The translations under genes and the position numbers were made by a program. The notes under the pieces were generated by a model that did not search any database, was not told where the DNA came from, and saw only the letters and a program-made list of their open reading frames with translations. From an uncultured Lachnospiraceae bacterium (GTDB lineage Bacteria > Bacillota > Clostridia > Lachnospirales > Lachnospiraceae), in NCBI GenBank assembly GCA_946620695.1, contig CAMONU010000006.1:17479-81478 (forward strand): a stretch of 64,000 bases of DNA. The letters run 5' to 3'. Shown here piece by piece: positions 7,779 through 19,076 of this stretch. Position 1 is the first letter of the stretch, and every line of letters starts with the position of its first letter.

Positions 7779-7871
7779 AGCTTTTTCGGAGAATCGATTT
7801 TGCCGGGAGGGGAGAAGGGCTTCAGATCTTTCACGGTGTTTGAAAAAGTTTTTTTGGAAATGGCAGGAAAT

Positions 7872-8870
7872 ATGAGAAGAAAGATTTATGTTGTATCAAT
7901 TATGCTGGCCGCTGCCCTGTCCGGTTTTACACCTTCCTGCTTCAGCCTGAATGCGGCTGAAACGGAAATCGGACAGGAAAATGCTGTTGTCTCTGAAAAG
8001 AATTCAGAGAAGGCCAGGGTCAGTTACCTGGGCCCTGCCGGAACCTATACCGAGGAAGCCGCGCAGTTTTTCTTTCCGGAAGCGTCGGAGTTCCTCCCCG
8101 AAAGCACCGTCCCTGAGGCGATTGCGGACGCTGTGGAAGGAAGGTCGGATTATGCGGTCATTCCGCAGGAAAATACGCTGGGAGGCGCGGTAACAAATTA
8201 TATTGACGCCCTCATTGCCAGCGAAGACGTATATGTCGTCGGGGAAGTGATCCTGCCGATCAGCCAGACGCTGATGGGACTTCCGGGGGCCTCTCTTGAT
8301 GAGATCCGTCTTGTCTGTTCCCATGCCCAGGGAATCAAGCAGAGCGAAACCTGGAGGAAAGAACATCTGCCGGATGCGGATACGCAGGAGATGGACAGCA
8401 CGGCCGCGGCGGCAAGTTATGTCGCAGAGAGCAAAGATCAGACGATAGCCGCGGTTGCCGCCCCGGGTGCGGCGAAGCTGTACGGTCTTTCTGTCCTGGC
8501 GGAGAATGTGCAGATTACGGATGCGAATAAGACCCGTTTTTATGTGCTCTCATCCTCACGGCCGGAGTCTGAAAACCACACGCATGCAGTCTTTGTTGCT
8601 TCCTGTGAGGCAAACAGAATAGATGATATCATCGTGGAGATTCATAACAGCGGGCTGGAATTTGTTACGATCCATGACCGGCCGGAAGGAAGTTATCTGG
8701 GCAGTTACCGTTATATCATCGAACTGGAAGACGAGGATGGAATCACGGAAGATGAACTGGCAGTGATTGAAGAAATTCCCGAACTGCGCTGCCTGGGAAG
8801 TTTTGACATGGTGGAGAAACAGAGTCGTTCTGCTGAAGAAAAAGAAGAGGAGCAGAATCCCGCAGGCTGA
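7872..8870 (+). CDS. pheA: Prephenate dehydratase (PheA-type, PDT plus ACT-like domain) with N-terminal signal peptide
   Basis: YLGPAGTYTEEAA, PQENTLGG, SHAQGIKQ, STAAAA, NKTRFYVL motifs; MRRK plus hydrophobic stretch plus LNA/AE at the N-terminus. Confidence 0.8.
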   Translation: MRRKIYVVSIMLAAALSGFTPSCFSLNAAETEIGQENAVVSEKNSEKARVSYLGPAGTYTEEAAQFFFPEASEFLPESTVPEAIADAVEGRSDYAVIPQENTLGGAVTNYIDALIASEDVYVVGEVILPISQTLMGLPGASLDEIRLVCSHAQGIKQSETWRKEHLPDADTQEMDSTAAAASYVAESKDQTIAAVAAPGAAKLYGLSVLAENVQITDANKTRFYVLSSSRPESENHTHAVFVASCEANRIDDIIVEIHNSGLEFVTIHDRPEGSYLGSYRYIIELEDEDGITEDELAVIEEIPELRCLGSFDMVEKQSRSAEEKEEEQNPAG

Positions 8871-9004
8871 TGAGCTGCCGGGAAACTGCCGGGAACGGAG
8901 ATAGAAATACGGCATAACCAGAATCAGTCTGATTATGCCGTTCTTTTTTTGAAACGCTGTCTGATTCAGAATATCCGGAACCAGACTTTCCGAACCGGAG
9001 TTTT

Positions 9005-9922
9005 TCAGCGCATCTGGTTGATATAGCGGCAGGCGGCCAGGGCGGCAGTGGCTCCGTCGGCGACGGCCGTCGTCAGCTGGCGGACACTCTTGCTGCGGCA
9101 GTCTCCGGCCACATAGATCCCGGGCGTCTTTGTCAGGCAGTTTTCATCCGAGTCGAAATATCCGAAGCTGTTCAGATCCGCAAGATCCTTAAAGGCGTCG
9201 TTCTCCGGGATCAGGCCGATGGCGACAAAGAGGCCGTCACAGGCGATGTCCGCTGTGTTTCCGCTGTCATTTTTCAGGATCCTTACACCTTTCAGTTCCC
9301 CGTTTTCAACGAGAAGATCCGTGATCTTTACGCCTGTGAAGTTTCTGACGTTTGATCTGGAGAAGAGAACCTTCTGCAGGGTTTCTTCCCCGGTAAAGAA
9401 GGCAAGATCCTGGAGCATGATTACCTCCCGGCACTTGTCCGCAAGGAGGATGGCCTCCTGAAGGGCGGAGTTGCCGCCGCCGGCCACGCATACGGTTTTC
9501 CCGCTGTAGAAATCTCCGTCACAGACAGCGCAGAAGGAGATGCCTTCCCCGACAAGCTCATTCTCGCCTTCAAGACCCAGCATGCGGTGCTTTACACCTG
9601 AAGCGAGGATGACGGAAAGGCCTTCGAAGCTGCTGCCTTCCTCCGTGGAGACAATCCAGTGACCGTCCTTCGGAAGCACGGATGTAACCTTTTCAAACTC
9701 AATCTCAGCGCCCTGGGCCAGAATCTGATCCAGGGTCCTGTCGGCGAATTCATTCCCGCTCATGGACAGGGTTCCGGGATAATTCTCCACTCTGGGAGAA
9801 TGGGTGATCTGTCCGCCGAAGCCATTTTTCTCAATAACCAGAACTGTCTTGCCGTTCCGCCTGGCGTAGAGCGCCGCGGTCATGCCTGCGGGGCCGCCGC
9901 CGACAACGATAATATCATACAT
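9005..9922 (-). CDS. trxB: Thioredoxin reductase (FAD/NADPH disulfide reductase)
   Basis: GGGPAG, CAVCDG redox motif, GGGNSA, AGDC, QLTTAVADG. Confidence 0.9.
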   Translation of the reverse strand: MYDIIVVGGGPAGMTAALYARRNGKTVLVIEKNGFGGQITHSPRVENYPGTLSMSGNEFADRTLDQILAQGAEIEFEKVTSVLPKDGHWIVSTEEGSSFEGLSVILASGVKHRMLGLEGENELVGEGISFCAVCDGDFYSGKTVCVAGGGNSALQEAILLADKCREVIMLQDLAFFTGEETLQKVLFSRSNVRNFTGVKITDLLVENGELKGVRILKNDSGNTADIACDGLFVAIGLIPENDAFKDLADLNSFGYFDSDENCLTKTPGIYVAGDCRSKSVRQLTTAVADGATAALAACRYINQMR

Positions 9923-9986
9923 GGGATCTGCCTCACTGAAGATTTCACGCTTTCCGGATAAACCGGAAAGCGTGAATACTGGGGGG

Positions 9987-12542
9987 TTATCGATTCATAA
10001 GCCATCCCTTGATCTCGGATACGCCTTTGAACTTGACGAATCCGTCCTGATCAATCAGAACAAGGGTCGGCGCCTGTTTTACACCGTATTTGCCGACAAG
10101 TTCTTTCTCCTCGTTGGCGTTCAGCGGTTCATAGTCCACGCCTGCCCGGTCAAGGAGCGCGCCCGCCGCCTTGCAGTTGGGACATGTGGGCGTCTTGAAG
10201 AGAAGGATCGTGGAGCCGGTCAGTCCGGAAGCGTCCCGGAGAGAATCTTCAGCTGCTGCGTTTTCAGTCGCTGCAGACTCAGACTGCGCTGCTGCAGTCC
10301 CGGCAGGAACAGAGTGCTGCATCTGTGCATCCGCAGCAGGAGCTGCCTGTGCTGCCGCTGCGTTCTCCGCAGGAGCTGTCTGCACTGATGTCGCAGCGTT
10401 CTCAGCAGGAGCTGCCTGTGCCGCCGGCTCACTGTCCACCGGCGCCGGAAGCGGTCCGGTATGGGTCAGGTGAGAATGGCCGATATTGTACACCAGACGG
10501 TCCTTATACTCCTGGGCCTTGCCGTCGTTCCAGTTCTGGACCGGACGGTAATAACCGGTGATGCGGCTGTAAACCTCTGTCTTCTGGCCGCAGATGGGGC
10601 AGGTGAACTGCTCGCCGGTCAGATAGCCATGGTCCTTGCAGACCGAATAGGTCGGGGACATGGTGTAGTAAGGCAGCTTATAGTTTTCCGCGATCTTGCG
10701 GACCAGGTTCGCAGCTGCTTTCCAGTCCGGAAGCTTCTCACCAAGGAAGGCGTGGAAGACGGTTCCCGAGGTGTAGAGGGTCTGCAGGTCGTCCTGAATA
10801 TCCAGAGCGGAGAAGATGTCTTCGCTGTATCCCACCGGAAGATGGGAGGAATTCGTATAGTAGGGCGTTCCGTTCATATTCGCGGTAATGATATCCGGGA
10901 ACAGCTCCTTGTCGTGCTTTGCGAAGCGGTAGGTGGTGGACTCTGCCGGCGTTGCCTCCAGGTTGTAGAGGTCGCCGTACTTTTCCTGATAGTCGGAGAG
11001 GCGCTTGCGCATATGGTTGAGCACGTCGCGCGTGAAGCGCTGTACCCGGGCGTCCGTCAGATCCGCGCGCAGCCACTTGGCGTTCAGTCCCACCTCGTTC
11101 ATGCCGATCAGGCCGATGGTGGAGAAATGGTTGCTGAAGGTTCCGAGGTACCTCTTCGTATAGGGATAAAGTCCCTGCTCCAGAAGCTTGGTGATGACCG
11201 TTCTCTTGGTCTTCAGGCTGCGGGCGGACAGATCCATGAGTTTGTCCAGACGGTCGTAGAAATCGGCCTCATCCGCCGCCAGGTAAGCGATTCTGGGCAT
11301 GTTGATGGTCACGACGCCGATGGAACCGGTTGACTCTCCGGAACCGAAGAAGCCGCCGGACTTCTTGCGCAGCTCACGCAGGTCGAGGCGGAGTCTGCAG
11401 CACATGGAGCGGACGTCGCTGGGCTCCATGTCCGAATTGATATAGTTGGAGAAATACGGAGTGCCGTATTTGGCTGTCATCTCAAAGAGAAGCTTGTTGT
11501 TCTCGGTTTCGCTCCAGTCAAAGTCCCTTGTGATGGAGTAGGTCGGGATCGGATACTGGAATCCGCGGCCGTTGGCGTCGCCTTCGATCATGATCTCGAT
11601 GAAGGCCTTGTTCACCATATCCATCTCTTTCTGACAGTCGCCGTAGGTGAAATCCATCTCCCTGCCGCCGATGATGGCCGGAAGGTTCTTCAGGTCGTTC
11701 GGGCAGGTCCAGTCCAGGGTAATGTTGGAGAAAGGCGCCTGCGTGCCCCAGCGGCTGGGCGTATTCACGCCGTAGATGAAGGACTGGATGCACTGCTTGA
11801 CTTCCCTCTGGGACAGATTATCCACCTTGACAAAAGGCGCAAGGTAGGTGTCGAAGGAGGAAAATGCCTGCGCGCCGGCCCACTCATTCTGCATGATGCC
11901 GAGGAAGTTCACCATCTGGTTGCAGAGGGTGGAGAGGTGGTTGGCGGGAGAGGATGTGATCTTCCCCGGAACGCCCCCGAGTCCTTCCTGGATCAGCTGC
12001 TTCAGGCTCCAGCCCGCGCAGTATCCGGTAAGCATGGAAAGGTCGTGCAGATGGATCGCCGCACTGCGGTGCGCCCTGGCGACTTCATCGTCATAGACCT
12101 CGCTCAGCCAGTAGTTGGCCGTGATGGCGCCGGAGTTGGACAGAATCAGTCCGCCCACGGAGTAGGTGACTGTCGAATTCTCCTTGACGCGCCAGTCATT
12201 GATCTGCAGATAGTTGTCGATGACTTCCTTGTAGTTCAGGAGCGCGGAATTGACATTGCGCACCTTCTCGCGCTGTCTGCGGTACAGGATATATGCCTTG
12301 GCGACATCCGAATAACCGGACTCGGAGAGTACCTTCTCCACACTGTCCTGGATGTTCTCAACCGTGATCTGCTCGTCGATGATCTTGCTCTCGAAATCAG
12401 ATGTCACATGCAGCGCGATCAGTTCGATCACGCTCGGATGATACTGTTTATCCAGTGCGCGGAATGCCTTGGTGATGGCATCCGTTATCTTGCTGATCTG
12501 AAATTCTACAATCTGACCGTCTCTTTTTACTACTTTATACAA
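9987..12542 (-). CDS. nrdD: Class III anaerobic ribonucleoside-triphosphate reductase with N-terminal ATP cone and C-terminal glutaredoxin/NrdH-like domain
   Basis: YKVVKRDG ATP cone, RSMCCRL finger loop, CKDH/CPIC Zn site, YSRITGYYRPV glycyl-radical motif, Ala/Pro linker, then TCPNCK redoxin; likely TTG start at 12542 behind GGAAGGGGG. Confidence 0.95.
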   Translation of the reverse strand: MYKVVKRDGQIVEFQISKITDAITKAFRALDKQYHPSVIELIALHVTSDFESKIIDEQITVENIQDSVEKVLSESGYSDVAKAYILYRRQREKVRNVNSALLNYKEVIDNYLQINDWRVKENSTVTYSVGGLILSNSGAITANYWLSEVYDDEVARAHRSAAIHLHDLSMLTGYCAGWSLKQLIQEGLGGVPGKITSSPANHLSTLCNQMVNFLGIMQNEWAGAQAFSSFDTYLAPFVKVDNLSQREVKQCIQSFIYGVNTPSRWGTQAPFSNITLDWTCPNDLKNLPAIIGGREMDFTYGDCQKEMDMVNKAFIEIMIEGDANGRGFQYPIPTYSITRDFDWSETENNKLLFEMTAKYGTPYFSNYINSDMEPSDVRSMCCRLRLDLRELRKKSGGFFGSGESTGSIGVVTINMPRIAYLAADEADFYDRLDKLMDLSARSLKTKRTVITKLLEQGLYPYTKRYLGTFSNHFSTIGLIGMNEVGLNAKWLRADLTDARVQRFTRDVLNHMRKRLSDYQEKYGDLYNLEATPAESTTYRFAKHDKELFPDIITANMNGTPYYTNSSHLPVGYSEDIFSALDIQDDLQTLYTSGTVFHAFLGEKLPDWKAAANLVRKIAENYKLPYYTMSPTYSVCKDHGYLTGEQFTCPICGQKTEVYSRITGYYRPVQNWNDGKAQEYKDRLVYNIGHSHLTHTGPLPAPVDSEPAAQAAPAENAATSVQTAPAENAAAAQAAPAADAQMQHSVPAGTAAAQSESAATENAAAEDSLRDASGLTGSTILLFKTPTCPNCKAAGALLDRAGVDYEPLNANEEKELVGKYGVKQAPTLVLIDQDGFVKFKGVSEIKGWLMNR

Positions 12543-12637
12543 AGCCGAATAGCCCCCTTCCATGTGTATGCACGGCGTTATGATCTTTGTACTGACCTCA
12601 GCCGTGCAGAATCAATGATAGCACCGGAGGGAGAATA

Positions 12638-12685
12638 AATCAATATCTTCTTGCTGTTAATTTAAAAACATACCAGATATGGTGT
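12638..12685. promoter_or_regulatory. Tandem NrdR boxes upstream of nrdD
   Basis: ACACCATATCTGGTAT (minus strand, 12670-12685) and weaker AATCAATATCTTCTTG (12638-12653), 32 bp apart; consensus acaCwAtATaTwGtgt. Confidence 0.65.
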
Positions 12686-12848
12686 TTTCAGAATAGTCTG
12701 TTAACTCACGGAAACCCAGCATCCATGCGCTTTCCGGCTTTCCGGGGCTGCTCTGGCGGAGCTGGTGTCCTCCCATATATAGGGCCGGCGGGGCCGGGCC
12801 GTGATGTACCCGGTCACTGGCAAAGCAGACAGAGAGAACACAGCAGGA

Positions 12849-13541
12849 TCAGCCAACGCCGCGCAGGCTAGTGTCCGGGACATAGCTGCGTACGATCCCG
12901 GCATAGCGCTCGAGATCCTGCGGGGAGGGGGCGTGGAGGTTCCCGTAGGGGACCGACTCCCGGTCCGTGAAGCACTGAAGGAAATAGCGGCGGGCACCGG
13001 CAATCATTCTGCCGATTTCTTCAAAGTCACTGTCTTCATGGAATTCTCTGACAACCGTTGTCCGGAATTCGTAGTCTGTGTCCCCTTTCATAAGCATGGA
13101 GACCGACTGCCGGATCCTGCTCAGGTCAAATTCGGAGCGGCCGATGGTGAGGGCATATTTGGCCGGACTGTTTTTGATGTCCATCGCGATATAATCCGCG
13201 AGCTTTTCCTCCAGAATCCTCTGCAGGAGTTCCGGATGATTTCCGTTTGTGTCAAGCTTGACTGCGTAGCCCATCGCCCTGATCTTTTTCAGCATTTCCG
13301 GCAGGTCCCTGTGCAGGCAGGGCTCGCCGCCCGTGATTGCCACGCCGTCCAGAAGACCCTGCCTTTTTTTCAGGAAATCAAAAAGCTGTTCCTCCTCCAT
13401 CAGTGCGGGGGCGGAACCGTCAACCAGTTCATAATTATGGCAGAAGGGGCAGCGGAAATCGCACTGTCCCAGAAAGACCGTGCAGGCAACCCTCCCCGGA
13501 AAATCAAGCAGCGTCATTTTCTGCAGGCCGTGTATTTTCAT
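12849..13541 (-). CDS. nrdG: Anaerobic RNR activating enzyme (radical SAM)
   Basis: CDFRCPFCHN CxxxCxxC motif, ITGGEP, KLDTNG; adjacent to nrdD. Confidence 0.92.
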   Translation of the reverse strand: MKIHGLQKMTLLDFPGRVACTVFLGQCDFRCPFCHNYELVDGSAPALMEEEQLFDFLKKRQGLLDGVAITGGEPCLHRDLPEMLKKIRAMGYAVKLDTNGNHPELLQRILEEKLADYIAMDIKNSPAKYALTIGRSEFDLSRIRQSVSMLMKGDTDYEFRTTVVREFHEDSDFEEIGRMIAGARRYFLQCFTDRESVPYGNLHAPSPQDLERYAGIVRSYVPDTSLRGVG

Positions 13542-13632
13542 ATCGGATCCTCCTCTTCCTTATTCCCGGCAATTATCCGATATTTTTCATCCGCTTACAA
13601 GTGGGAACATGTTTTTGCCCCTTCGTTACTCT

Positions 13633-13701
13633 ATTCATGGGCTGTTTGAAATCGGGTTCCGGTTCGTCGTGCCTGCAGGGGAAACAGGTTCTGATTTCAA
13701 A
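13633..13701 (+). mobile_element. Dispersed MITE/REP-like element, copy B (right arm truncated)
   Basis: ATTCATGGGCTGTTTGAAATCGGGTTCCGGTTCGTCGTGCCTGCAGGGGAAACAGGTTCTGATTTCAAA. Confidence 0.85.
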
Positions 13702-13986
13702 TTATATTTTCCGTCAGGAGAGGTCCTTGAAGGGAAGGCAGCGGACGGGACTGGCAGTCAGTTTCACGCAGATGCGGCTGCAGATGAACAGGCGGCAGCA
13801 GGAGGGGCAGATCTTCATGGACATTGCGGCGCTGCGATGCTAAAATATAAACGCTTTGCAGGTAATTCAATGGCCTGCCGGAACGGGCCCGCCGTGAGGA
13901 AGCCGGGTGCATGGGCGCATGGTTCATTCTATGGCCTGCTGGAGAGGGCAGACTGGAAAGATAAAGGATACGGAGGAAAGAAAAAC

Positions 13987-15408
13987 ATGGGAAAAGAGCC
14001 GGAGTATAAACAGAAACTGGACGCCTGGATCGACGCGCACACAGATGAGATGATCGGGGATCTGAAGACCCTGGTGCGCATTAATTCCGTGAGAGGTGAG
14101 GCGAAGGAAGGGATGCCCTACGGGGAAGGCCCTGCCGCAGTGGTCGCGGCCATGGAGAAACTGATGGCGTCCTACGGCCTGTCTGTCACCAACTATGAAA
14201 ATTACTGTGTGACGGGCGACCTTAATGGTGCCGGGGAGAAGGCGCTGGATATCCTGGCCCATCTGGATGTGGTGCCGGTCTCTGAAGACTGGACCGTGAC
14301 GAAGCCATTTGAGCCCCTGGTCGTCGGGGACAGGATCTACGGGCGCGGAACATGCGACGATAAAGGACCGGGCGTGGCGGCCCTGTATGCCGTCAGAGCA
14401 GTGAAAGAGCTGGGATTTGCTTTAAAACGCGGTGTGAGGCTGGTCTACGGCTCCGACGAGGAGTGCGGCTCCTCGGATCTGGAATATTACTACAGCAAAG
14501 AGAAAGAGGCGGAATATACCTTCTCGCCCGACGCGAATTTCCCGCTGATCAATATCGAGAAGGCACGTCTTTCCAGGAGCTTCTGCGCTGAGGCTGCGCA
14601 GGGAGAGGGAAGGCCGGCCCTTGTCAGCATCGAGGCGGGCAGCAAGGCGAACGTGGTTCCGGGCAAGGCGGAAGCGGTATTTGAGGGCCTGAAGGAAGAG
14701 GATCTGGCAAAAGCGGTGAAGCAGCTGGAGGAAGAGACCGGCGTGACGGTCAGCTGTACATCGGACGGGGGCCGCTGCAGCGTGGAACTGAAAGGTGCCG
14801 CCGGCCATGCGGCAAGCCCGGCAGCGGGCAATAATGCCCTTACAGCCCTCCTGAGACTGATTGAGCTTCTTCCCCTTGCAGCCGGCCCGGCCGCGGATAG
14901 GATGCATGCCCTGGCGAGGCTGTTCCCGCACGGTGACTGGCGCGGGGAGGCTCTGAAGGTCGCCATGAGCGACGAGGAGAGCGGCAGTCTCACGCTCAGC
15001 CTGGATGTGCTGAATTATAAAGACGGAAAGATTGAGGGAATCTTTGACTGCCGGGCGCCTCTCTGCGCGACGGAGGAGAATCTGACCTGTGTCATGCGGA
15101 AGGCCCTTGCGGAAGCAGGATTTTCCATGGAGGAAGGCGGCATGACACCCGCCCATGCGGTCAGCGCGGACTCCTTCTTTGTGCGTACGCTCCTTGACTG
15201 CTACGAACTATACTCCGGCCGGAAGGGGAAGACCCTGGCGATCGGCGGCGGGACCTACGTTCATGAGCTGGAGCGCGGAGTCGCCTTCGGATGCGCGGAG
15301 GAGGGCGTGGATACCCATATGCACGGAGATGACGAGTACATGAAGATTTCCATCATGGTGATGAGCGCCAAGATTTTCGCGGACGCGATCCTGCGCCTCT
15401 GCATGTAA
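13987..15408 (+). CDS. pepV: M20 family dipeptidase (PepV/Sapep-like)
   Basis: LAHLDVVP, GRGTCDDKG, SDEECGS, HMHGDDE motifs; GGAGG RBS before ATG 13987. Confidence 0.87.
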   Translation: MGKEPEYKQKLDAWIDAHTDEMIGDLKTLVRINSVRGEAKEGMPYGEGPAAVVAAMEKLMASYGLSVTNYENYCVTGDLNGAGEKALDILAHLDVVPVSEDWTVTKPFEPLVVGDRIYGRGTCDDKGPGVAALYAVRAVKELGFALKRGVRLVYGSDEECGSSDLEYYYSKEKEAEYTFSPDANFPLINIEKARLSRSFCAEAAQGEGRPALVSIEAGSKANVVPGKAEAVFEGLKEEDLAKAVKQLEEETGVTVSCTSDGGRCSVELKGAAGHAASPAAGNNALTALLRLIELLPLAAGPAADRMHALARLFPHGDWRGEALKVAMSDEESGSLTLSLDVLNYKDGKIEGIFDCRAPLCATEENLTCVMRKALAEAGFSMEEGGMTPAHAVSADSFFVRTLLDCYELYSGRKGKTLAIGGGTYVHELERGVAFGCAEEGVDTHMHGDDEYMKISIMVMSAKIFADAILRLCM

Positions 15409-16196: not shown

Positions 16197-17357
16197 TCAG
16201 TTGACCGCGATCACGGATGCCGCTGTATTCTCTGTTTCTTCTTCCTGCGAAGACGCAGCGGGCGCGGAGGATGCCGCGGAAGAAGTCCCCGTCTCTCCAT
16301 GTGCCGCAAGCGTGTCGGCCCACACCGTATCCGGTAGGTAATGCCCCTTCAGATAGGAGAGCATCTGCTCACAGTACTTCGGATAAAGGTGGATTCCGTC
16401 GTTGGAAGCCTCCGGAATCAGAGCGCCGTATCCGTTGGTGAAGATCTCATTCAGATTCAGGTACCAGGCGAACCACAGATTCTCGCAGGCGGAGAGAATA
16501 TAACCGTTGATCGTCCGTACGTTATTGTTGTTGTCGTATTCGTAGCCGGCGGCAATCCTGGATTCGTCCACATAGATGACGGAGCATACATAGACGATCG
16601 CATGGGGCTGCAGCTGGTGGAACTGATTCAGCACATTTTCAAAGGCCGGCTGGAAATCCTCCCAGGGATAATACCCCAGGTCGTTGGCTCCGAGCATCAG
16701 GTAGATGCGGTCGTACTGCCGGCCGCTCAGACCCTGGTAGACGGAGATCATGCCGTCCGAGGTGGAGATGATCTGCTTGCCCATATCGGAACTGTTCAGG
16801 CCGATCGCGGTCAGGAAGGTTCCCTGGGTGATGCCGGACGCGTTCCGGAAGCCCTCCATGCGGGAGTCTCCGATAAATACCGCGTTGGCAAAATAGGAGT
16901 CATCCACCGGCGGAGACGTCTCTTCTACAACTGCGGGAGAATCGATCTCCTCTGAGATCCGGTAGGGATCTGTTACCGTCTCTTCTTCCTTGACGGGCGA
17001 ACTGACGACTGTGCTGGCAAGGCCTGCCAGGCCCGCGTCAGGAGTGGTTCCGTTCTGGAGCGAATCCGATACGTCCACGGCCGGAACCGTGTCTGCGATG
17101 GAACTGTCAGCTGAGACGGCCGTGGTGCCTTCTGCCGCAGTGCCCTGCGTACCGCTGTCGGAAACGACTTCAATCCTTGATCCCATCCTGTGAGTGAAGA
17201 GCATGTAGATCACATTGCCTTCAAATACGGCCAGGACCACAAAAACCAGAAGGAGCAGCTGCGGGATCATATATTTCCCCGGAACAGAGCGCCTTCTCTG
17301 CGTTCTTTTTCTCTTTACGCTGCCGGAACGTCCGGATTGCGTTTTTCTCTCTGCCAT
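16197..17357 (-). CDS. Membrane-anchored SGNH/GDSL hydrolase family protein
   Basis: N-terminal basic region plus one TM helix, Ser/Thr/Ala linker, FIGDSR, LGAND, DGIH catalytic blocks. Confidence 0.82.
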   Translation of the reverse strand: MAERKTQSGRSGSVKRKRTQRRRSVPGKYMIPQLLLLVFVVLAVFEGNVIYMLFTHRMGSRIEVVSDSGTQGTAAEGTTAVSADSSIADTVPAVDVSDSLQNGTTPDAGLAGLASTVVSSPVKEEETVTDPYRISEEIDSPAVVEETSPPVDDSYFANAVFIGDSRMEGFRNASGITQGTFLTAIGLNSSDMGKQIISTSDGMISVYQGLSGRQYDRIYLMLGANDLGYYPWEDFQPAFENVLNQFHQLQPHAIVYVCSVIYVDESRIAAGYEYDNNNNVRTINGYILSACENLWFAWYLNLNEIFTNGYGALIPEASNDGIHLYPKYCEQMLSYLKGHYLPDTVWADTLAAHGETGTSSAASSAPAASSQEEETENTAASVIAVN

Positions 17358-17378: not shown

Positions 17379-17394
17379 ACACCATATATAGTGT
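17379..17394. promoter_or_regulatory. Near-consensus NrdR-box-like palindrome
   Basis: ACACCATATATAGTGT, 15/16 to acaCwAtATaTwGtgt; no clear second box. Confidence 0.45.
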
Positions 17395-17657: not shown

Positions 17658-19076
17658 ATGGTATTCAGCAGCCTGCTGTTTCTGTTCCGCTTTTTACCGG
17701 CGGTGCTTTTCTTTTATTTTATCGTACCCCCAAGATTTCGGAATCTGGTTCTTCTGCTGGTCAGCCTGGTATTCTATGCCTGGGGCGAGCCGGTCTATGT
17801 GGTTCTGATGATCGTTTCGATCCTGATTTCATGGGGAGGAGGCCTTGCGGTCAGCAGCTTCCGGGCACAGGGCCGGGAGAGGGCGGCAAAGACCGCTCTG
17901 GTCCTGTCAGTCGGGGCAGGTCTCAGCCTTCTGGGATTCTTCAAATACGCGGACTTTCTGATCCGGACGGTGAATTCAGTGGCCGGGACAAAGATCTCGC
18001 TGCTGCATCTGACCCTGCCGATCGGGATCTCATTTTATACCTTCCAGACGATTTCCTATATTATCGACGTGTATCGGTCAGATGCCTCTGTCCAGAAAAA
18101 TGTAATATCCTACGGGGCCTATGTGACCATGTTTCCCCAGCTGATCGCCGGACCGATCGTCCAGTACCGGACCATCGACGCCCAGCTTCGCTCCAGGAAG
18201 GAGAGCATGGAGGAGTTTGCTCAGGGGATCAACCGCTTTATGATCGGCCTGGGCAAGAAGGTGCTCCTGGCCAACCAGGCGGGGGTGCTGTGGGATCAGA
18301 TCCGGGTTATGGATACGGGGAAAATGCCGGTCCTGACGGCCTGGATCGGGATCGCAGCCTACACCTTCCAGATCTATTTTGATTTTTCCGGCTATTCTGA
18401 CATGGCCATCGGACTTGGCCATATGTTCGGATTCCGCTTCCTGGAAAATTTTGATCATCCATATCTGGCTTCGAGCGCGACGGAATTCTGGCGCAGGTGG
18501 CACATCTCGCTGGGAACCTGGTTCCGGGAGTATGTCTACATTCCTCTTGGAGGAAACCGTGTAGGACGCGCGGGCCTGATCCGCAATACACTGGTGGTCT
18601 GGCTCCTGACAGGCATCTGGCACGGCGCGGACTGGAATTTCATGATCTGGGGCGTCTATTACGGGATTCTTCTGCTTCTGGAAAAGCTGGTCTACGGGAA
18701 ATACCTGCAGCGCCTGCCTTCATTCCTCCGGCATTTCTACGCGATGTTCGCGGTGATGATCGGCTGGTATATCTTCTCCTTCAATGAGATCAGCGGCGGC
18801 CTGGGATACCTGACGGCCATGTTCGGCAGCGGGGGAAGGCTTCTTTCCGGCGGCAGCATCTATCTGCTCTATTCCAACGGGATTCTTCTGGCAGCCCTGA
18901 TCCTCGGATCGACGGACCTGCCGCAGAGGATCGCGTCGGGGATTCTTGCAAGGGTACGGGAGAGCGACGCTGTTTCCATTCTCCTGCGCAGCCTCTTTTA
19001 TGCAGCGGTGTTCCTCCTCAGCACGGCCAGTCTGGTGGGGGCATCCTACAATCCGTTCCTGTATTTTCGTTTCTGA
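17658..19076 (+). CDS. MBOAT family O-acyltransferase (AlgI/PatA/DltB-like)
   Basis: MVFSSLLFLF, LPIGISFYTFQ, FPQLIAGPIV, FDFSGYSDMAIG, EFWRRWHISL, GIWHGA motifs. Confidence 0.93.
   Translation: MVFSSLLFLFRFLPAVLFFYFIVPPRFRNLVLLLVSLVFYAWGEPVYVVLMIVSILISWGGGLAVSSFRAQGRERAAKTALVLSVGAGLSLLGFFKYADFLIRTVNSVAGTKISLLHLTLPIGISFYTFQTISYIIDVYRSDASVQKNVISYGAYVTMFPQLIAGPIVQYRTIDAQLRSRKESMEEFAQGINRFMIGLGKKVLLANQAGVLWDQIRVMDTGKMPVLTAWIGIAAYTFQIYFDFSGYSDMAIGLGHMFGFRFLENFDHPYLASSATEFWRRWHISLGTWFREYVYIPLGGNRVGRAGLIRNTLVVWLLTGIWHGADWNFMIWGVYYGILLLLEKLVYGKYLQRLPSFLRHFYAMFAVMIGWYIFSFNEISGGLGYLTAMFGSGGRLLSGGSIYLLYSNGILLAALILGSTDLPQRIASGILARVRESDAVSILLRSLFYAAVFLLSTASLVGASYNPFLYFRF

Follow-up and report, generated by a model that had tools for sequence, protein, structure and literature searches.

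A candidate thiol-dependent class III ribonucleotide reductase with a tethered redoxin and an operon-encoded thioredoxin reductase paralogue in a Lachnospiraceae genome

Introduction

The thiol-type (NrdD2) class III ribonucleotide reductases (RNRs), as defined by Wei et al. 2014 and summarised in PMC4493059, have a third active-site cysteine and a glutamate in addition to the cysteine of strand beta-A. The summarising article describes the Neisseria bacilliformis NrdD as using thioredoxin (Trx) and reports that the Thermotoga maritima enzyme depends on a protein factor of more than 10 kDa, for which Escherichia coli Trx could not substitute. The commonest double-cysteine form carries an MCCR finger loop that keeps the methionine of formate chemistry, and its reductant has been described as unsettled (PMC9669993). 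A fused redoxin is a working RNR reductant in Facklamia ignava, which encodes a glutaredoxin (Grx) in a Grx::ATP-cone::NrdB protein (Rozman Grinberg et al. 2018, PMC6187632); that study also lists one RefSeq 'Glutaredoxin:NrdD' protein (Lachnospiraceae bacterium TWA4, NrdDd) but does not take it further. In Clostridium pasteurianum, the redoxin Cp9 works with an NADH-dependent thioredoxin reductase (TrxR) (PMC3720550). Here, we analyse a locus of three genes, nrdG, nrdD and a trxB-like gene, within a stretch of 64,000 nucleotides (hereafter, the window) from an uncultured Lachnospiraceae bacterium (assembly GCA_946620695.1, contig CAMONU010000006.1, positions 17,479 to 81,478 of the forward strand).

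At this locus, the redoxin is part of the catalytic subunit itself, at the C-terminal end of NrdD. An earlier note on the window, made from the sequence alone, had read the locus as a self-contained thiol-dependent class III RNR in which electrons pass from NADPH to TrxB, then to the fused redoxin and finally to the active-site disulfide. The observation of a class III RNR module with a tethered redoxin is confirmed: the three genes form an anaerobic module for deoxyribonucleoside triphosphate (dNTP) synthesis, a widespread and still uncharacterised version of a known type of enzyme rather than a one-off. The interpretation as a thiol relay is partly supported and its NADPH step is doubtful. 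Judging from the sequences compared below, we consider it probable that the locus encodes a class III RNR dependent on thiols, with a tethered redoxin that the operon-encoded TrxR paralogue recycles.

Gene order and active site of NrdD

The minus strand carries the three open reading frames (ORFs) head to tail in the order nrdG, nrdD, trxB-like, with spacers of 285 bp and 64 bp (Table 1), the second of which agrees with the distance and strand given in the earlier note. In profile searches, NrdG scored 203.5 bits against TIGR02495 (NrdG2; cut-off 131.15), and its radical-SAM CxxxCxxC motif reads C-DFR-C-PF-C (C27-x3-C31-x2-C34), as found in NrdG2 activases. NrdD scored 1152.7 bits against NF006126 (cut-off 548), and its NRDD core spans aa 128-692 (PF13597, 638.7 bits).

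Residues were assigned by aligning NrdD with the solved T. maritima enzyme (4coi), in which C329-C330 correspond to C388-C389. By this alignment, C389 would be the thiyl-radical cysteine and C388 the extra thiol, with M387 kept before them; the equivalent of the putative proton donor Glu536 is replaced by leucine in the formate-type NrdD of Prevotella copri (8p23). The protein thus combines the NRDD fold, RITGY motif, Zn ribbon and finger-loop C389 of a class III catalytic subunit with the beta-A cysteine, double-cysteine finger loop and active-site glutamate of NrdD2. C182, M387, C388, C389, R390, E536, the Zn-ribbon residues and G670 are all invariant in an alignment of 14 fused NrdD homologues (A1). 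Among the 120 best protein matches, the finger loop reads SMCCRL in 119 and SMCCRR in one, and the redoxin motif CPNC is found in 120 of 120, a joint conservation of CPNC and MCCR that is far beyond chance. The assignment of NrdD to the thiol-type class III enzymes is therefore supported by every defining residue, as the earlier note had proposed; its glycyl radical motif was located and its tandem-cysteine SMCCRL loop stands, with the coordinates corrected to those of Table 1, the span 11397-11408 given before being that of SMCC only.

The tether and the redoxin domain

Beyond the glycyl radical domain, NrdD continues into a linker rich in Ala, Pro, Gln and Glu and ends in a small redoxin domain. 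The peptide APAENAA occurs twice in the linker (aa 718-724 and 730-736), as previously noted, because a 36-bp tandem repeat present in 2.7 copies in the DNA (10334-10426) encodes the repeated unit. We modelled NrdD aa 690-858 with AlphaFold2 from an alignment of 80 tails (the window and 79 other species). The linker, of about 75 residues, was predicted without secondary structure at a pLDDT (model confidence score) of 46-59, and the redoxin as a well-defined domain with the elements E96-101, H106-117, E123-126, H131-137, E144-149, E152-157 and H158-168 (E, strand; H, helix; model numbering). Foldseek matches of the domain were thioredoxins (E 4e-5, probability 1.0), and a cis-Pro-type A-P-T occurs at aa 831-833.

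Both redoxin cysteines and the P-T pair are invariant in 80 of the 80 aligned tails, in which the motif reads CPNC (74), CPKC (4), CANC (1) or CPRC (1). By contrast, the distance from aa 690 to the redoxin varies from 29 to 103 residues in the relatives (median 38), and the tandem repeat places the tether of the window, at 96 residues, near the top of this range. Strict conservation of the CxxC and cis-Pro next to a freely varying linker is what a functional domain carried by a flexible arm would be expected to show. The swinging arm put forward in the earlier note thus fits the predicted structure, a thioredoxin-fold domain held by a tether that is variable in length and predicted to be disordered. 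Of the 80 aligned tails (the window and 79 relatives from L004-L083), 32 carry a cysteine cluster in the tether that joins the glycyl radical domain to the redoxin (CC, CxC, CxxC, CACTC or similar; e.g. L018:7053-7385 and L069:7047-7391). These clusters are reminiscent of the shuttle cysteines at the C-terminus of class I/II RNRs, and the linker in the window has no cysteine.

The domain can be assigned at superfamily level to the thioredoxin-fold dithiol oxidoreductases by its fold, CxxC and cis-Pro. The glutaredoxin/NrdH-like label of the earlier note survives to this extent, with the CPNC exactly where it had been placed, and its two narrower meanings do not. Against the Pfam glutaredoxin profile PF00462, aa 786-835 scored 28.7 bits (cut-off 22.9), and this generic model is the only glutaredoxin model passed, TIGR02181 giving 17 bits (cut-off 90). 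A classical glutathione (GSH)-dependent glutaredoxin was rejected on the motifs, which are CPNC and not CPYC, APT at the TVP position, and K-G-V-S-E-I-K with no GG-x-D-D. NrdH, defined by a C-[VMI]-Q-C motif (PMC3720550), was rejected on CPNC, on a TIGR02194 score of 19 bits (cut-off 85.75) and on a genome without a class I RNR. The best NCBIfam match is the YruB/Cp9 family (TIGR02196, 23 bits), of which the redoxin is not a member because this score is far under the cut-off of 88.6.

Distribution and phylogeny of the fusion

With the redoxin tail as query, 553 or more protein clusters (90% identity) were retrieved, and almost all have the architecture ATP-cone, NRDD and Glutaredoxin. When one genome per species was scanned, relatives turned up in at least 597 genomes, of which the best 80 species loci were analysed, and the fusion was present in 80 of these 80. 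The fused loci carry the labels Lachnospiraceae, Butyrivibrio, Oscillospiraceae, Ruminococcaceae and Faecalibacterium prausnitzii, and also Erysipelotrichaceae, Christensenellaceae, Acidaminococcus and Eggerthellaceae. Most of the related loci have nrdG directly ahead of nrdD, in the same orientation. The frequency of trxB beside a redoxin-fused nrdD, which the earlier note had wished to see counted, is 57 of the 73 loci with at least 1.3 kb of downstream flank (78%), all on the same strand; of the 59 trxB-like genes in such cassettes overall, 52 start within 400 bp of nrdD. Of 121 genomes sampled evenly across the window's own order, 14 encode the fusion, and no trxB was found within about 4 kb of the fused nrdD in any of the 13 other loci, which rules out that trxB always accompanies the fusion.

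In a tree of NrdD cores, all fused enzymes fall into one clade (support 100), apart from seven unfused MCCR relatives of about 50% identity that have nrdG adjoining and no trxB. The description of the system as self-contained in the earlier note is overstated, given that several donors to the flavoprotein are conceivable. In the basal fused lineages, nrdD has no trxB next to it, and a trxB neighbour is found in most members of a derived clade of 84 sequences (support 99). The NrdD of the window lies deep in this derived clade, where its nearest relative is 93% identical and comes from a metagenome-assembled genome (MAG) labelled Lachnospiraceae; its companions there are MAGs labelled Lachnospiraceae, Erysipelotrichaceae and Ruminococcaceae. 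Two fused NrdDs from genomes of the window's own family (L094 and L096) are basal in the tree and have neither nrdG nor trxB adjacent. The nesting of the window's NrdD in the derived clade while same-family NrdDs are basal suggests that the three-gene cassette may have been acquired horizontally. No close orthologue of the M20 peptidase that flanks the cassette was found in the same-family genomes.

The TrxB-like reductase

The flavoprotein encoded after nrdD scored 136 bits against PF07992 and has the flavin adenine dinucleotide (FAD) motif GGGPAG, the redox-active dithiol CAVC and the second dinucleotide loop GGGNSA (Table 1). At the position of HRRxxxR it reads LQDLAFFT, with His replaced by Gln and the three Arg by Asp, Leu and Thr. 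The pair GxGxxA and HRRxxxR is the criterion for NAD(P)H-dependent TrxRs (PMC10880999). With HRRxxxR replaced and a TIGR01292 score of 280.3 bits under the cut-off of 343.45, the protein was rejected as an NADPH-dependent low-molecular-weight TrxR, and the step from NADPH to TrxB in the earlier note loses its footing on the same two grounds. The protein was also rejected as an FFTR (ferredoxin-dependent flavin thioredoxin reductase), as it keeps GGGNSA and matches 6gnc, 6gna and 6gnd only at E-values of 1e-31, 2e-29 and 5e-28, respectively. Its closest solved relative, 7jyp (6e-67), likewise reads QNLPYLT where the canonical 7aaw reads HRRDTLR; a literature search found no paper on the cofactor of 7jyp.

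This substitution is the rule among the 59 cassette TrxBs, of which 44 have [LVI]Q[DN]Lxxx[TL]T, 14 a canonical HRRxxFR and one a third type, with CxxC intact in all. The protein of the third type (L080:7555-8463) has GDGNTA, LTWMDKFF and CALC, and the redoxin of its partner has CPRC. The Q[DN]L and HRR types are clear homologues by sequence, the TrxB of the window being 50% identical to the HRR-type TrxB that follows nrdD in F. prausnitzii. As to the origin of the Q[DN]L type, the FastTree topology needs three changes, and its well-supported branches allow one. An Asp or Asn in place of the Arg that binds the 2'-phosphate, with the dinucleotide loop kept, would be the classical signature of a switch to NADH. 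Preference for NADH is known from the T. maritima TrxR, which works with a Grx-like protein, and from C. pasteurianum Cp34.

RNRs and thioredoxin reductases in the host genomes

The genome of the window (3.0 Mb, 91% complete) holds a single NrdD, and no class I/II RNR was found in it. Neither a pyruvate formate-lyase (PFL)-like gene nor a canonical NADPH-TrxR was detected, both absences being provisional because the genome is 91% complete. The sole other TrxR homologue is of FFTR type (6gnc, 1e-98) and is followed by a WCGPC thioredoxin, the two forming the genome's only other thioredoxin system (C5:69039-70330, outside the window); the reductase has VGYAPKE for GxGxxA, so that both nucleotide motifs are gone, and matches the structures 6GNA-6GND at 1e-98 to 3e-86.

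In the 13 fused genomes without an adjacent trxB, the best TrxR elsewhere is of HRR type in 12 and an FFTR in one, and none is of Q[DN]L type. Among 20 genomes with a Q[DN]L cassette, nine also have a canonical TrxR (with a Trx beside it in six of the nine) and three have an FFTR plus a Trx; with a canonical TrxR or FFTR also there, the cassette TrxB is an extra paralogue in 12 of the 20. No TrxB of Q[DN]L type was seen outside the cassette in the genomes compared.

Proposed electron path and its alternatives

In the path that we infer, NrdG would install the glycyl radical on G670 of NrdD, and nucleoside triphosphates would be reduced by the NrdD2 (thiol) route with C389 as the thiyl radical; C182 and C388 would give two electrons and form a disulfide, with E536 as proton donor. 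The tethered CPNC domain would then re-reduce this disulfide, the disordered tether of about 75 residues being presumably long enough to serve either active site of the dimer, and the oxidised CPNC would be recycled by the TrxR-like flavoprotein downstream via FAD and the CAVC dithiol. With the arginines for the 2'-phosphate replaced and GGGNSA kept, the flavoprotein would draw its electrons other than by canonical NADPH binding, and probably uses NADH or another non-NADPH donor. We tentatively propose NADH; a protein such as ferredoxin or flavodoxin is possible rather than likely, and NADPH itself is improbable. A bolder version, which we regard as rather doubtful, would hold that the Q[DN]L TrxBs are a separate, cassette-only lineage that has moved off NADPH and onto NADH or a low-potential protein donor, mainly recharging the redoxin of NrdD, and that the CC/CxC clusters in the tethers of about 40% of the relatives act as a shuttle dithiol in the manner of class I/II enzymes.

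Several points weigh against the thiol relay. Met387, which NrdD1 enzymes use in formate chemistry, is kept here, and MCCR enzymes hold the components for either reductant (Burnim et al.; PMC9669993). A disulfide inside the barrel must be reached by a folded redoxin. Pairing with trxB is not obligatory, because the basal fused lineages lack an adjacent trxB, and 14 of the 59 cassette TrxBs are of the ordinary HRR type. No other TrxR homologue was found in eight of the 20 Q[DN]L-cassette genomes, which are MAGs whose completeness is not established, and the cassette TrxB may be a general rather than a private reductase in some genomes. The lack of PFL and canonical TrxR in the window's genome is provisional at its level of completeness. 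Finally, our literature search found no paper describing or testing a C-terminal NrdD-redoxin fusion or its TrxB partner.

In one alternative, formate would be the turnover reductant, through a thiosulfuranyl route from Met387 and Cys182 as in E. coli NrdD, and the redoxin and TrxB would serve for maintenance, keeping the cysteines of the Zn ribbon and glycyl domain or the finger-loop pair reduced for activation by NrdG or for recovery after oxygen. M387 is invariant, as this would require, and basal fused lineages manage without an adjacent trxB. Padovani and colleagues reportedly found in 2001 that the thioredoxin system is necessary for activating E. coli NrdD. Retention of the Met is also general, as 83% of double-Cys enzymes keep it and could use either reductant (PMC9669993). 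However, Cys388 and Glu536, which are not found in formate-type enzymes, are invariant alongside the redoxin, a stoichiometric tethered redoxin with a presumably co-transcribed reductase would be costly for occasional repair, and the genome has no PFL-like gene, with the reservation that it is 91% complete and that other sources of formate exist. We therefore think it unlikely that formate is the turnover reductant.

We hold it about equally unlikely that the chain runs exactly from NADPH to TrxB, to the fused redoxin and to the active site. The clear homology of TrxB to low-molecular-weight TrxRs, with its FAD, CAVC and GGGNSA motifs, would suit such a chain, as would its 50% identity to the HRR-type TrxB in the same position in F. 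prausnitzii and the 14 canonical proteins among the 59, but LQDLAFFT puts an acidic residue at the Arg for the 2'-phosphate, of GxGxxA plus HRRxxxR, the two motifs that define NAD(P)H TrxRs (PMC10880999), the protein has only the first, and the score lies under the TIGR01292 cut-off. Very improbable, in our view, is a general antioxidant or disulfide-reducing role for TrxB and the redoxin, like that of the Cp34-Cp9-peroxiredoxin system, with no specific part in RNR. The YruB/Cp9 family is the best NCBIfam match of the redoxin, albeit far under cut-off, Cp9 has an NADH-dependent TrxR as its partner (PMC3720550), and in eight of 20 genomes no TrxR homologue other than the cassette TrxB was found; nevertheless, the fusion is kept across at least 93 species loci in a single NrdD clade and co-occurs only with thiol-type active sites, and the operon contains no peroxiredoxin gene and is apparently under NrdR control. 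The relay through the tethered redoxin and the TrxR paralogue remains the reading that we favour.

Regulation and genomic surroundings

The earlier note had also reported NrdR boxes upstream. Two predicted NrdR-type boxes are indeed present in the nrdG-nrdD spacer, upstream of nrdD and not of nrdG (Table 1), and were found by a scan of core positions and comparison with relatives, against the 16-bp consensus acaCwAtATaTwGtgt, which occurs in tandem about 31-32 bp apart near promoters. Box 1 matches six of the six core consensus positions with four mismatches overall; box 2 has six mismatches, is a weak match alone and overlaps promoter-like hexamers. A strict consensus search (three mismatches at most) gave nothing near nrdD. 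Of 78 related loci, 61 have a box of this type no more than 400 bp ahead of nrdD, often as one of a pair 31-33 bp apart, and none occurs in 320 control windows of coding sequence. As an nrdR gene is also present in the genome, NrdR appears to control the nrdD-trxB part. The single site in the window that passed the strict search, where 0.15 would be expected, is a near-perfect box at 17379-17394 (ACACCATATATAGTGT, one mismatch). It lies in the divergent spacer between an ORF of 386 aa at 16197-17357 on the minus strand and one at 17658-19076 on the plus strand, neither of which is an nrd gene. From their sequences alone, we take these to be an SGNH/DltD-like protein and an MBOAT-type O-acyltransferase, respectively.

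A perfect 14-bp stem-loop lies between the nrdD stop codon and the ribosome-binding site of trxB (centroid -25.1 kcal/mol, minimum free energy -27 kcal/mol, z = -4.3 against shuffles). It may set the ratio of nrdD to trxB expression or stabilise the nrdD message; it is not kept in relatives, in which the nrdD-trxB gap can be as short as 5-23 bp. An Rfam scan of 8800-14200 returned no RNA family, and hence there is no sign of a riboswitch in the 285-bp spacer.

The annotated ATG of nrdD (12540-12563) gives seven extra residues that are absent from homologues. Translation probably begins at the TTG at 12542, because the N-terminus would then read M-YKVVKRDG as in homologues and a ribosome-binding site (GAAGGGGG) lies ahead of this TTG. 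The genes flanking the module, for a prephenate dehydratase (7800-8870) and an M20 peptidase (14011-15408), are on the plus strand and unrelated to it.

Table 1. Features of the nrdG-nrdD-trxB locus, in window coordinates
Feature	Position	Strand	Description
nrdG	12849-13541	-	Class III RNR activase, radical SAM, 230 aa; TIGR02495 and PF04055
NrdR box 1	12670-12685		Minus-strand sequence ACACCATATCTGGTAT; 107-122 nt ahead of the annotated start of nrdD
NrdR box 2, degenerate	12638-12653		CAAGAAGATATTGATT; 32 bp centre to centre from box 1
Promoter-like sites	12660-12632 and 12643-12615	
nrdD::redoxin fusion	9987-12563	-	858 aa; NF006126, PF13597, PF03477 and PF00462
ATP-cone	12267-12536	-	aa 10-99; PF03477, 83.3 bits
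Cys182	12018-12020	-	On barrel strand beta-A, at the bottom face of the active site; T. maritima C125
Finger loop S-M-C-C-R-L	11391-11408	-	aa 386-391; T. maritima S328-C-C-R331
Glu536	10956-10958	-	Putative NrdD2 active-site proton donor; T. maritima E495
Zn ribbon of the glycyl radical domain	10590-10640	-	C642, H645, C655 and C658; T. maritima C/H...CxxC
Glycyl radical motif R-I-T-G-Y	10551-10565	-	aa 667-671, G670
Ala/Pro/Gln/Glu-rich linker	10212-10451	-	About aa 705-784; no Cys
Thioredoxin-fold redoxin domain	9993-10211	-	aa 785-857; b1-a1-b2-a2-b3-b4-a3; pLDDT 96-97
CPNC	10173-10184	-	aa 794-797; redoxin active-site motif
Perfect 14-bp stem-loop	9944-9976	-	Between the nrdD stop and the trxB ribosome-binding site; no U tract
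trxB-like gene	9005-9922	-	Flavoprotein disulfide reductase, 305 aa; PF07992
TrxB FAD motif GGGPAG	within 9005-9922	-
TrxB CAVC	9521-9532	-	Redox-active dithiol
TrxB GGGNSA	9464-9481	-	Second dinucleotide loop
TrxB LQDLAFFT	9392-9415	-	Occupies the HRRxxxR position
Terminator-like hairpin	8909-8941	-	After trxB; 14 pairs, then ATTTCTATCT

Significance and comparison with known systems

At stake is the choice between formate and a thiol reductant in the MCCR group, which makes up the majority of double-Cys class III RNRs. The fused family is a natural experiment in this respect, with the reductant apparently written into the polypeptide and the operon, and it is frequent among abundant anaerobes of the gut and rumen (Faecalibacterium, Butyrivibrio, Oscillospiraceae and Lachnospiraceae). 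Where, as in the genome of the window, the enzyme is the sole RNR, the electron chain would be essential for DNA synthesis. On the bolder and rather doubtful version given above, a large group of gut and rumen Firmicutes would run anaerobic dNTP synthesis on a dedicated electron wire, uncoupled from formate and from the NADPH pool. A non-NADPH TrxB paralogue would extend the growing list of atypical thioredoxin reductases of Clostridia.

The NrdDs of N. bacilliformis and of T. maritima (the latter PDB 4COI/4U3E) share with the enzyme of the window the fold, the beta-A cysteine, the double-cysteine loop, the glutamate, the glycyl radical and the Zn ribbon, and a protein dithiol is the expected reductant there too (PMC4493059, PMC9669993). 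The window enzyme is distant from that of T. maritima (phmmer E 8e-40), has MCCR and not SCCR in the finger loop, and possesses an ATP-cone. Its redoxin is covalently attached at the C-terminus, in contrast to a free Trx, and a TrxR paralogue is encoded in the operon.

Among reductases, FFTR (PDB 6GNA-6GND, Clostridium) is a TrxR homologue that has likewise lost HRRxxxR; it has also lost GxGxxA and is about 290 aa long, whereas the cassette TrxB keeps GGGNSA and belongs to a different lineage. The pair of Cp34 and Cp9/YruB resembles the module in combining a Grx-like redoxin of about 75 aa with a clostridial TrxR homologue that uses NADH, the two being encoded together (PMC3720550). Its client is a peroxiredoxin, however, and its redoxin is free-standing with a CP[YW]C motif. 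The F. ignava fusion likewise joins a small redoxin to an RNR subunit. In that case, the enzyme is of class I, the fusion is N-terminal on the radical-generating subunit and the redoxin is a GSH-dependent Grx of the CPYC type, whereas in the window, the enzyme is of class III, and the redoxin lies C-terminally on the catalytic subunit, has CPNC without GSH motifs and is accompanied by a TrxR-like partner.

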